A stretch of 64,000 nucleotides of DNA from Octopus vulgaris (taxonomy: Eukaryota), in the NCBI GenBank assembly GCA_951406725.2, contig OX597839.1:11656001-11720000 (forward strand), in the 5' to 3' direction. Every line of letters begins with the position of its first letter. Within the stretch, counting starts at the first letter, position 1. The notes beneath the pieces are model-generated. The model made no database searches, had not been told where the DNA came from, and was given only the letters and a program-made list of their open reading frames with translations. Shown in pieces: positions 19,101 to 22,100 of this stretch. The translations under genes and the position numbers were made by a program.

Positions 19101-22100
19101 CACCATATGTGGGGTTATCAGTACCTGCAGTAGCAGTTGTAGTAGCAACAGTAACCGCGTTAGCGGCAGCTGCGTGACTGCAGTGCCAGCTACAACTACC
19201 AATACTTTCAGCACACGCAGCCCGTTGACCGCTGGTAATCCCGCCACCAGCATCACTGCCACGCCCACTGTAGCTGTCATCGCCCACGCAACCAACTCAC
19301 CAACAACTCTAACAAGCAGCTCTGCGATTGCTGCAAGTCCCGGCACGACTTCTAACTCTCCCAGTTGCAGTGTATCTGCCTCGGTCTCTACACCTCAGCC
19401 ACATAACGCCAGCAACTCTAACAACAACAACAGCAACAATAACAACAACACAAACACATTTCCCACCACAGCTCTTCCACCGACTTTTCCCCACCCGACA
19501 TTCTCGTCCTCGGCCTCATCTGGCACCGTTGCTCACAACTCTCTGCCCAACCATTCCCAGCCACACAACTTAGCACACAGTACAATACAACAACAGCAGC
19601 AACAACAACAACAACACAATTCGTTGCCACACAGCTCACTGCCTCACAACTCCCTGTCACACAACTCACAGCCATACAACACACAGCCTCATAACAACCC
19701 ACAACACAACACACAGCCTCACAGCAACCAAGCACATACCACACAACTCCACAACACACAACATCACAGCAACCAACCACACAACACACAACCTCACATA
19801 ACACAGTCCCATAACACACTACCCCACAACACACAGCCCCACAACACACAGTCACACAACACACAGCCACATAACACACCATCTCACAACACACAGTCAC
19901 ACAACACACTCTCACATAACTCTCACAACTCCTTACCACACAACTCTCTGCCTCATTATTCCAACCCACACTCAACTCACTATACAATCCCACACTCCAC
20001 TCATGCCCACTTAACCCACTCTTTCTCGAACCTTTCAAATTCAGCTCTTTCACACTCGGGACCCACCCACTCTGGTCCATCACACTCAGGGTCCTCTCAT
20101 TCAGGGTCCTCTCACTCCGGTCCTTCTCACTCAGGACCGTCTCACTCTGGTCCATCACACTCAGGACCTTCCCACTCGGGTCCTTCTCACTCAGGGTCCT
20201 CCCACTCTGGTCCTTCTCACTCGGGACCCTCCCACTCTGGTCCCTCACACTCAGGACCCACGCATTCTGGTCCATCACATTCGGGACCAACCCACTCCGG
20301 TCCTTCTCACCCAGGACCCACCCACTCTGGTCCGTCACACTCAGGATCCTCCCTCTCTGGTCTACCACACTCGGGGGCCACCCACTCTGCTCTGCCACAC
20401 TCGGGACCCACCCACTCTGCTCTGCCACACTCGGCACCCACGCACTCGGGACCCTCCCACTCTGGTCCATCACATTCAGGACCTTCTCATTCAGGTCCAT
20501 CGCATTCAGGACCTTCCCACACCGGTCCATTACACTCTGGCTCCTCTCACTCTGGCTCCTCCCACTCTGGCTCATCTCATTCGGGGCTATCTCAGTCGGG
20601 CTCTTCCCATTCTGGCCCTTCCTACGTAGGAACTTCTCATTCAGGCCCGTCTCACTCGGGGCCATCTCATTCGGGCTCATCTCATTCAGGCCCATCACAC
20701 TCGGGCCCGTCTCATTCAGGCACATCTCACTCGAGCTCGTCGCACCCGGGCTCAACTCACTTGGGTCCATCTCACTCAACACTTCACATAACTACTACCC
20801 ATTCAACTTCTCATTCATCCCACTCCCACTCTGTTCACTCAAGTCACACTCACCCTCATTCTGCCCACCCACACTCCGTGCATCCTCTTTCTAATTCTCT
20901 TAGTTCTTATCCTAGTTCCTCTTTGACCCACCACACCTCCAACCTTGCTCACCCTAGCAACACTCCGCCCTTGCCATCACTGTCAGTCAATGGGCCAACA
21001 CCTCCGACTCCGCCATCAAAGCCTCCTCTACCACCTCCACCTCCCCTTCCTCCAGCCCCTTCAGTTATCTTGTCTCCTTCTCCCCATCTGAAGAGTCCCT
21101 CCCCCCAGTCAAAAGCTGCTTCATCAATTCAACAGCAACCGCCGCCACCACCACCACCAGTGCCGCCTATAGTTCGTGAAGCCCCAAAACGAACGCCGCC
21201 CTCTCCCAGAGCACTTCCACGCCGAGACGATCCTGTCCTCACAAAAGAGAAAGAAACGTTGCCGTACATTTCCAAGAGCTCTGTCGGATGGACTAGGTAA
21301 GGATCCAGTTTCCCTCGTCTTCTCTGTCTCGTATCATGATGAGTTTCCATTATTCCACACATGTCCCACCTAAGTATTCCGAATCATGTGTCCAACTCAT
21401 GCCAGCATGGAAAGCGGATGTTAACCCTTTCGTTACTGTATTTATTTTGAGAAAGGAAACTAACTACTGTACCATGTTGCTCAGTACACTTTAGCTGCGT
21501 GTCTCGTTGATGCTGGCCTATCACACTCCAGCCTCTCTTGCTCAGGTGCATCTCGCTCGAGCTGCCATGCTCAACTCATTTGGATCCGTTGACATGAGAA
21601 ATAGTTACATGCCGTGTAATTCCTTTTCATGTCAATTTTGGATGGGGTGTGTGTGTAGATGTCTTTTCTCGTAGCCTCTAGTTTGACTCAAGCCTGAGAT
21701 GGAAACTATGTGGAAGCCCATAAGACGGATTGTACTTGTAATTCTAAGACCTGGACTGGTTGCACAGTAAGTGACAGCCTAAAATATATAAAAACGAACA
21801 TCCGCAGGAGTGGCTGTGTGGTAAGTAGTTTGCTTACCAACCACATGGTTCCGGGTTCAGTCCCACCTCGGGCCGACCAAAGCCTTGTGAGTGGATTTGG
21901 TAGACAGAAACTGAAAGAAGCCCGTTGTATATATGTATATATATATATATATATGTGTGTTTGTGTGTCTGTGTTTGTCCCCATAGCATTGCTTGACAAC
22001 CGATGCTGGTGTGTTTATGTCCCCGTCACTTAGCGGTTCAGCAAAAGAGACTGATAGAATAAGTACTGGGCTTACAAAGAATAAGTCCCGGGGTCGAGTT

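Follow-up and report, generated by a model that had tools for sequence, protein, structure and literature searches.

Inspection of the window, the 64,000-nucleotide stretch of Octopus vulgaris DNA analyzed here, revealed that two tandem arrays of histidine-spaced pentapeptides are an in-frame, spliced part of an octopus AUTS2-family protein and are under selection at the protein level. Array 1 (19615–19968, plus strand), as delimited by unit register, comprises 23 HNTQP/HNSLP-like pentads, 20 of them in exact register (19615–19914) and three more after a three-residue slip. It is followed by an out-of-register linker (19969–20052), by array 2 (20053–20772, plus strand) with 48 HSGPS-like pentads, and, according to the translation, by an irregular His/Ser-rich tail (20773–20958, plus strand) containing 16 His in 62 residues. 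In agreement with the roughly 70 His pentapeptides announced in an earlier note on this DNA, 67 of the 71 units were led by His (22/23 in array 1 and 45/48 in array 2). The counts of about 22 and 48 given there were sound as unit numbers (23 and 48) but not as pattern matches, since HN[TS][QL][PS] occurred in 13 of the 23 units and HSG[PS][ST] in 34 of the 48, with exact HSGPS in 22. The 720-nt HSGPS block proved to be free of indels, as had been described, its 48 units of 15 nt following one another without any break in register. Overall, 65 pairs of His five residues apart were observed, against a mean of 14.3 and a maximum of 25 in 2000 shuffles.

Both arrays are carried by a single AG/GT-bounded exon of 2260 nt (19037–21296, plus strand; phase 1 in, phase 2 out), matching the previously proposed 2.26-kb exon. 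It was defined by splice signals, with the acceptor before 19037 and the donor after 21296, and by an open frame (19012–21300, plus strand) covering the array. The encoded segment runs from a Thr/Ser-rich start through the two arrays and the His-rich tail to a Pro-rich end. Poly-Thr, poly-Asn, and poly-Gln trinucleotide tracts (19046–19107, 19412–19461, and 19581–19614) also lie in this exon, and RNA contigs break there. The next exon (22396–22679, plus strand) is entered in phase 2 and holds MFASP, the start of the O. bimaculoides RefSeq model; given these phases, skipping of the array exon would shift the frame.

The assignment to the AUTS2 family made in the earlier note was well supported by the Pfam Auts2 match, the HX repeat, and the similarity of the last exon to an octopus homolog. 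The Auts2 profile (PF15336) matched two window exons with 48.2 and 47.1 bits, above the cut-off of 23 (43670–46313, plus strand). At a distance from the array, homologue comparison located a conserved HX repeat (HQ/HT) at 37389–37442 (plus strand). The last coding exon (47628–48458, plus strand) was 98% identical to O. bimaculoides XP_014769813, a 662-residue "autism susceptibility gene 2 protein homolog" that was collinear with the window exons from 22574 to 48455. With the family as described for vertebrate AUTS2/FBRSL1/FBRS, invertebrate aAUTS2p, and Drosophila Tay, the octopus protein has in common the Auts2 domain and HX repeat as well as an Arg/Glu-rich C-terminal region and a disordered Pro-rich linker before the core (PMC7732068, PMC9008325). 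Just before the HX repeat (37362–37373), PASY stands in place of the WW-binding PPxY motif, as it does in O. bimaculoides and the cephalopod-like P0185; the Mytilus and Lingula motif is PPPY. PPxY is present in most AUTS2 members and is missing too in FBRS, FBRSL1, and Tay (PMC7732068); it is thus not a defining mark of the family. In addition, a 27-residue Cys-containing O. bimaculoides segment (RPPPTSKQC...) was found at 28260–28340, with no match listed in the bivalve, clam, and chiton proteins.

Upstream of the array exon, a 43-nt mini-exon (ASDVESDLF...; 13149–13191, plus strand; phase 1 out) likely precedes it. Its translation matches the molluscan ASD.S.D[IL]F anchor and was the top profile match in the window, yet a weak one (E 0.18). 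The conserved N-terminal blocks IDGFA and YLCDSES were not found within the window and probably lie upstream of it. Among public proteins, the partial P0180 (798 aa; same cluster as XP_014769813) contains the final 76–78 residues of the array exon and the next exon without the array itself; its match to the exon end was complete apart from a two-Pro indel, and it links that end to the Auts2 domain. Compared with the window, P0180 is longer by two Pro at one tract and shorter by two Pro in the exon that follows. Both public models found for the O. bimaculoides cluster (P0001 and P0180) were devoid of the N-terminal part including the array, and the octopus AUTS2-family gene is probably under-annotated.

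Expression of the exon was assessed in four sequencing runs from four studies under three organism labels, which are probably RNA (a guess rather than an entry on record). Of the 24 runs listed, 20 contained 50% or more of the words of the exon. In all four probable RNA runs, one contig spanned 19625–21294 and continued with 22394–22679 across a 1099-nt GT..AG intron, with no indel listed, and in three of the four the same array-bearing contigs extended about 2 kb further. Since the contigs jump this intron, the array belongs to a spliced transcript, and this junction supports the inclusion of the exon in transcripts, which the earlier note had named as a check. The run contigs and P0180 jointly place the Auts2 domain and the array exon in one transcript. 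Contigs from three runs had 117 letters before 19108, 46 of them beyond the exon's share, with no intron cover seen; these extra letters are compatible with splicing to 13149–13191. Exonic differences among the runs amounted to six, five synonymous and one replacement (Ala to Pro, toward the consensus unit), and the four runs showed no array length variant, although contigs drop rare variants. One RNA contig (run X2) terminated precisely at position 22679, which hints at alternative splicing past the 22396–22679 exon.

As the earlier note had pointed out, third codon positions vary while the peptide is kept: array 2 contained 42 distinct DNA units among 48, and its 22 exact HSGPS units were written in 18 different DNA words. 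Relative to the consensus, each of the four four-fold third positions differed in 29–32 of the 48 units, as against 1–4 for second positions. In pairwise comparison, the coding frame gave a saturated pS of 0.75 with a pN of 0.15, whereas the pN/pS ratios of the two other plus frames were 1.6 and 4.0. Because unit pairs share ancestry, changes were counted on a minimum spanning tree of the units from one genome. This yielded 51.7 synonymous and 26.3 replacement changes for array 2, corresponding to an omega of 0.21 (binomial p 7e-12). Neutral duplication–mutation simulations in which only stops were forbidden (n = 150) displayed a mean omega of 0.95 and a minimum of 0.50, under one duplication model and with fewer changes than in the real array (59 vs 78). 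Array 1 gave an omega of 0.46 (p 0.014) over its 20 registered units, the three post-slip units being left out. The most constrained position was the His codon, with omegas of 0.11 and 0.08 in the two arrays despite their different units; about 4.4 His replacement changes were counted where 12.1 were expected (p 0.003–0.009 against the other codons). In array 2, Gly (0.15) and Ser5 (0.18) were nearly as constrained. With an omega of about 0.2 among the units of array 2 and saturated synonymous sites, the earlier proposal of protein-level selection over recent slippage was borne out. Other open frames over the array (19418–20791, minus; 19920–20894 and 20015–20629, plus) were dismissed as shadows; low pN/pS was confined to the His frame and the antisense frame that mirrors it exactly, which has 19 stops.

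The codon pattern also bears on how array 2 grew. GGA and GGT alternate as Gly codons over its first 32 units, GGC predominates in the last 16, and the third-position match was 0.44 between units two apart and 0.23 between neighbors. This pattern indicates that the first 32 units arose by growth of a 30-nt dimer followed by long divergence, and the array would thus be far older than the 0.3% split among the organisms of the compared runs. Local recent duplications were detected within it at 20368–20427 and 20533–20577.

To place the array among relatives, 27 homologues were compared, of which 18 span both anchors around the exon (bivalves, a chiton, two snails, and a brachiopod among the named ones) and nine, including the cephalopod-like ones, do not. 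The view that other homologues lack the array was upheld for the spanning ones, all of them non-cephalopod or without an organism name, none of which had the 71 His pentads. Their anchor-to-anchor segment measured 158–428 residues with 6–39 His, as opposed to 827 residues in octopus, and at most three His in five-spacing were found in each of the 27. At the array site, three clam or clam-like proteins of venerid type (P0017, P0007, and P0006, around residues 290–365) carry an S[TS]VDNKY-like heptad missed in the earlier note, with nine copies in Ruditapes, three in Mercenaria, and six in a clam-like protein. Unlike the octopus array, this heptad is charged and aromatic, and it represents an independent expansion with other chemistry; the chiton homologue has a short HTSPSL-type repeat further on. 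The unrelated clam heptad at this position marks the site as a repeat-tolerant linker, and the aligned proteins portray it as a repeat hot spot accepting repeats of any chemistry. A linker region of the AUTS2 family has been described as divergent and disordered (PMC7732068), and we infer by position only, human AUTS2 not being aligned, that the octopus array site corresponds to it.

Protein, metagenome, and DNA-pattern searches found no squid, cuttlefish, Nautilus, or second-octopod sequence reaching the array, and the array's age is not datable by this route. The exon as a query against longer proteins gave two unrelated matches, and the next exon retrieved only P0001 (O. bimaculoides). A phmmer search against 50% representatives (150 matches listed) yielded, with the two exon-query matches included, 0 of 152 proteins bearing any of nine AUTS2 marks, and no relative turned up when metagenomes were scanned with the end of the exon. 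The DNA pattern for (HSGPS)3H hit four GC-rich contigs with three to four units each that were not AUTS2, and the top score in the ESM Atlas was an uninformative 0.81. Runs of at least eight His at every fifth residue were present in 40 of the 152 unrelated proteins among the matches listed, and the pattern by itself is therefore not special. Nine of these proteins were looked up and were single-member clusters, mostly uncharacterized models. Two of 11 scanned were HMG-box models (P0031 and P0086, one from Pampus argenteus) with His-led pentapeptide runs (HMTQP-like and HVSQA); these runs, seen in single gene models, may be a parallel to the array among transcription factors.

The 448 residues encoded by 19615–20958 include 91 His and not one Lys, Arg, Asp, or Glu, and their computed charge, assuming independent sites with a pKa of 6.0–6.5, was +3 to +10 at pH 7.4 and +12 to +30 at pH 6.8. 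A single-sequence AlphaFold run, weak without an alignment, gave a pLDDT of 38.8 with no secondary structure and no confident model. The lack of any other ionizable residue together with the lack of a predicted fold favors a disordered His contact surface. By analogy with known His-rich regions, we accordingly put at about 45% the probability that the array is a disordered, His-spaced interaction module tunable by protons or zinc.

In the mechanism we propose, 15- and 30-nt duplications would have built the array in the repeat-tolerant linker that precedes the conserved core. It would be disordered and, near pH 7.4, almost uncharged, its His rings making many weak contacts with itself, Zn2+, or partners. 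Acidification or an increase in free zinc would turn it cationic or cross-linked, which may alter the nuclear partitioning of the protein and its grip on acidic partners or nucleic acid; the array would modulate, rather than replace, the HX repeat and the Auts2 domain, to which the PRC1/P300 functions are due in vertebrates. Unpaired His at every fifth residue provides a poorer zinc site than GHHPH does, and the nucleus contains little free zinc. The HX repeat binds P300 in mammals (bioRxiv 2021.03.30.437620; PMC9008325), and the link from this binding to the array suggested in the earlier note is weakened in that the repeat stands as a separate, intact motif. Binding of PCGF3/5-PRC1, CK2, and P300 by AUTS2 is a mammalian finding only (bioRxiv 2021.03.30.437620); on the strength of its family, the octopus protein is assumed to join PRC1 as well. 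It would be a bolder and rather improbable step to suppose that octopods, perhaps all coleoids, have placed a 70-His proton/zinc switch on their only AUTS2 protein, making the condensation or release of a Polycomb-derived activator follow neuronal pH or zinc.

The main rival is a constrained spacer, in which the array merely lengthens a disordered linker and selection keeps it in solution, without charge, and free of aggregation, while His has no task of its own. Such a role would suit a site that carries unrelated repeats in clams and varies between 158 and 428 residues, a family region, matched by position, that is divergent and disordered (PMC7732068), and the 71% share of Ser, Gly, and Pro in array 2. 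It sits less easily with His at every fifth residue being the least changed in both arrays despite their different units, with the occurrence of His to Gln/Asn, expected to be tolerated in a spacer, in only 1 of 48 units, and with 720 nt free of indels despite saturated synonymous sites, so that we regard it as somewhat unlikely. Selection might instead preserve a modification scaffold resembling the RNA polymerase II tail, where an S-G-P-S/T core provides about 40 hydroxyl pairs three residues apart for primed phosphorylation or O-GlcNAc and His forms part of the recognition unit. CK1/CK2-type priming uses n+3 spacing, and 40 of the 48 units carry Ser/Thr at both their second and their fifth residue; array 1, however, is without this spacing, no acidic residue is available for CK2 priming, and the consensus offers no Ser-Pro site. 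CK2 is a component of the mammalian AUTS2-containing PRC1 (bioRxiv 2021.03.30.437620), and even so we consider the scaffold improbable.

A regular solenoid or helix bearing a His ladder would account for the strict five-residue register, and a Pfam GETHR pentapeptide match was obtained (E 0.032, below its cut-off). Yet each unit contains Gly-Pro, a hydrophobic core residue is absent, and the AlphaFold run on the single sequence predicted no secondary structure, leaving such folding very improbable. The related candidate of beta-helical pentapeptide-repeat proteins (PF00805) was rejected, with no Pfam match at E up to 1, no hydrophobic core residue, and no predicted fold. Finally, the array might be a neutral coding minisatellite or be selected as DNA or RNA, as Tandem Repeats Finder reports 15/30-nt arrays, the RNA fold has a z of −5.1 against dinucleotide shuffles, and the recent local duplications given above are present. 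This explanation was largely refuted by the omega of 0.21, which lies outside all 150 neutral simulations, and is further disfavored by the uniform array length in the four runs. RNA structure as the selected feature was likewise discarded: 12 of 60 synonymous shuffles were equally stable, and Gly-Pro codons explain the folding.

Returning to the proton/zinc-tunable module, the closest functional precedents are other His-rich regions. In the yeast SWI/SNF subunit SNF5, His in a Gln-rich low-complexity region of a chromatin regulator senses pH (PMC8890752); there the function is shown and the region is not periodic, whereas the possible pH sensing of the octopus array rests on analogy. The His-rich region of HRG likewise consists of tandem His/Gly/Pro pentapeptides with variable units and titratable His, and its GHHPH repeats have their charge switched by Zn2+ or protonation (PMC5372734). 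HRG, however, is a secreted plasma protein with 11 repeats and three His per unit (PMC5372734), in contrast to 71 units with one His each in a protein predicted to be nuclear, and the adjacent His pairs that mark HRG units were not found in the octopus array; no homology is claimed. The squid beak proteins HBP-1 and HBP-2, invoked in the earlier note, share cephalopod His/Gly tandem pentapeptides (GHGxY), but they are extracellular and their phase separation needs Tyr (PMC6884462). The HSGPS block has a single aromatic residue, a Tyr, in 240, and this analogy accordingly failed: with so few aromatic residues, the array is unlikely to self-coacervate in the manner of squid beak proteins. Nor did the comparison with speckle-targeting His tracts hold, for although a nuclear regulator of development contains a His-rich stretch here too, the signal of DYRK1A and cyclin T1 needs at least six consecutive His (PMC2644819) and the longest run in the array is two.

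Judging from titles and the beginnings of abstracts, the array in octopus AUTS2 appears undescribed in the literature, although the supplements of PMC7732068 could hold an octopus sequence. AUTS2 is a regulator of brain development in vertebrates. If the pH/zinc switch is real, gene regulation in the cephalopod brain would be tied to cell chemistry by a lineage-specific sensor on a conserved regulator; if the array is a spacer, the finding would amount to a thoroughly documented repeat hot spot within a family already known, of modest interest. Having no other ionizable residue and being under clear selection, the array offers a clean natural test piece for spaced His in a nuclear disordered region, for which the clam repeat, with other chemistry at the same site, serves as a natural control.

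Elsewhere in the window, three apparently non-coding repeats were noted: a degenerate, duplicated CTA tract whose period is 144 nt (2850–3140), a dispersed repeat arranged as a 184-nt tandem (16698–17150), and a 75-nt tandem (51792–51964).
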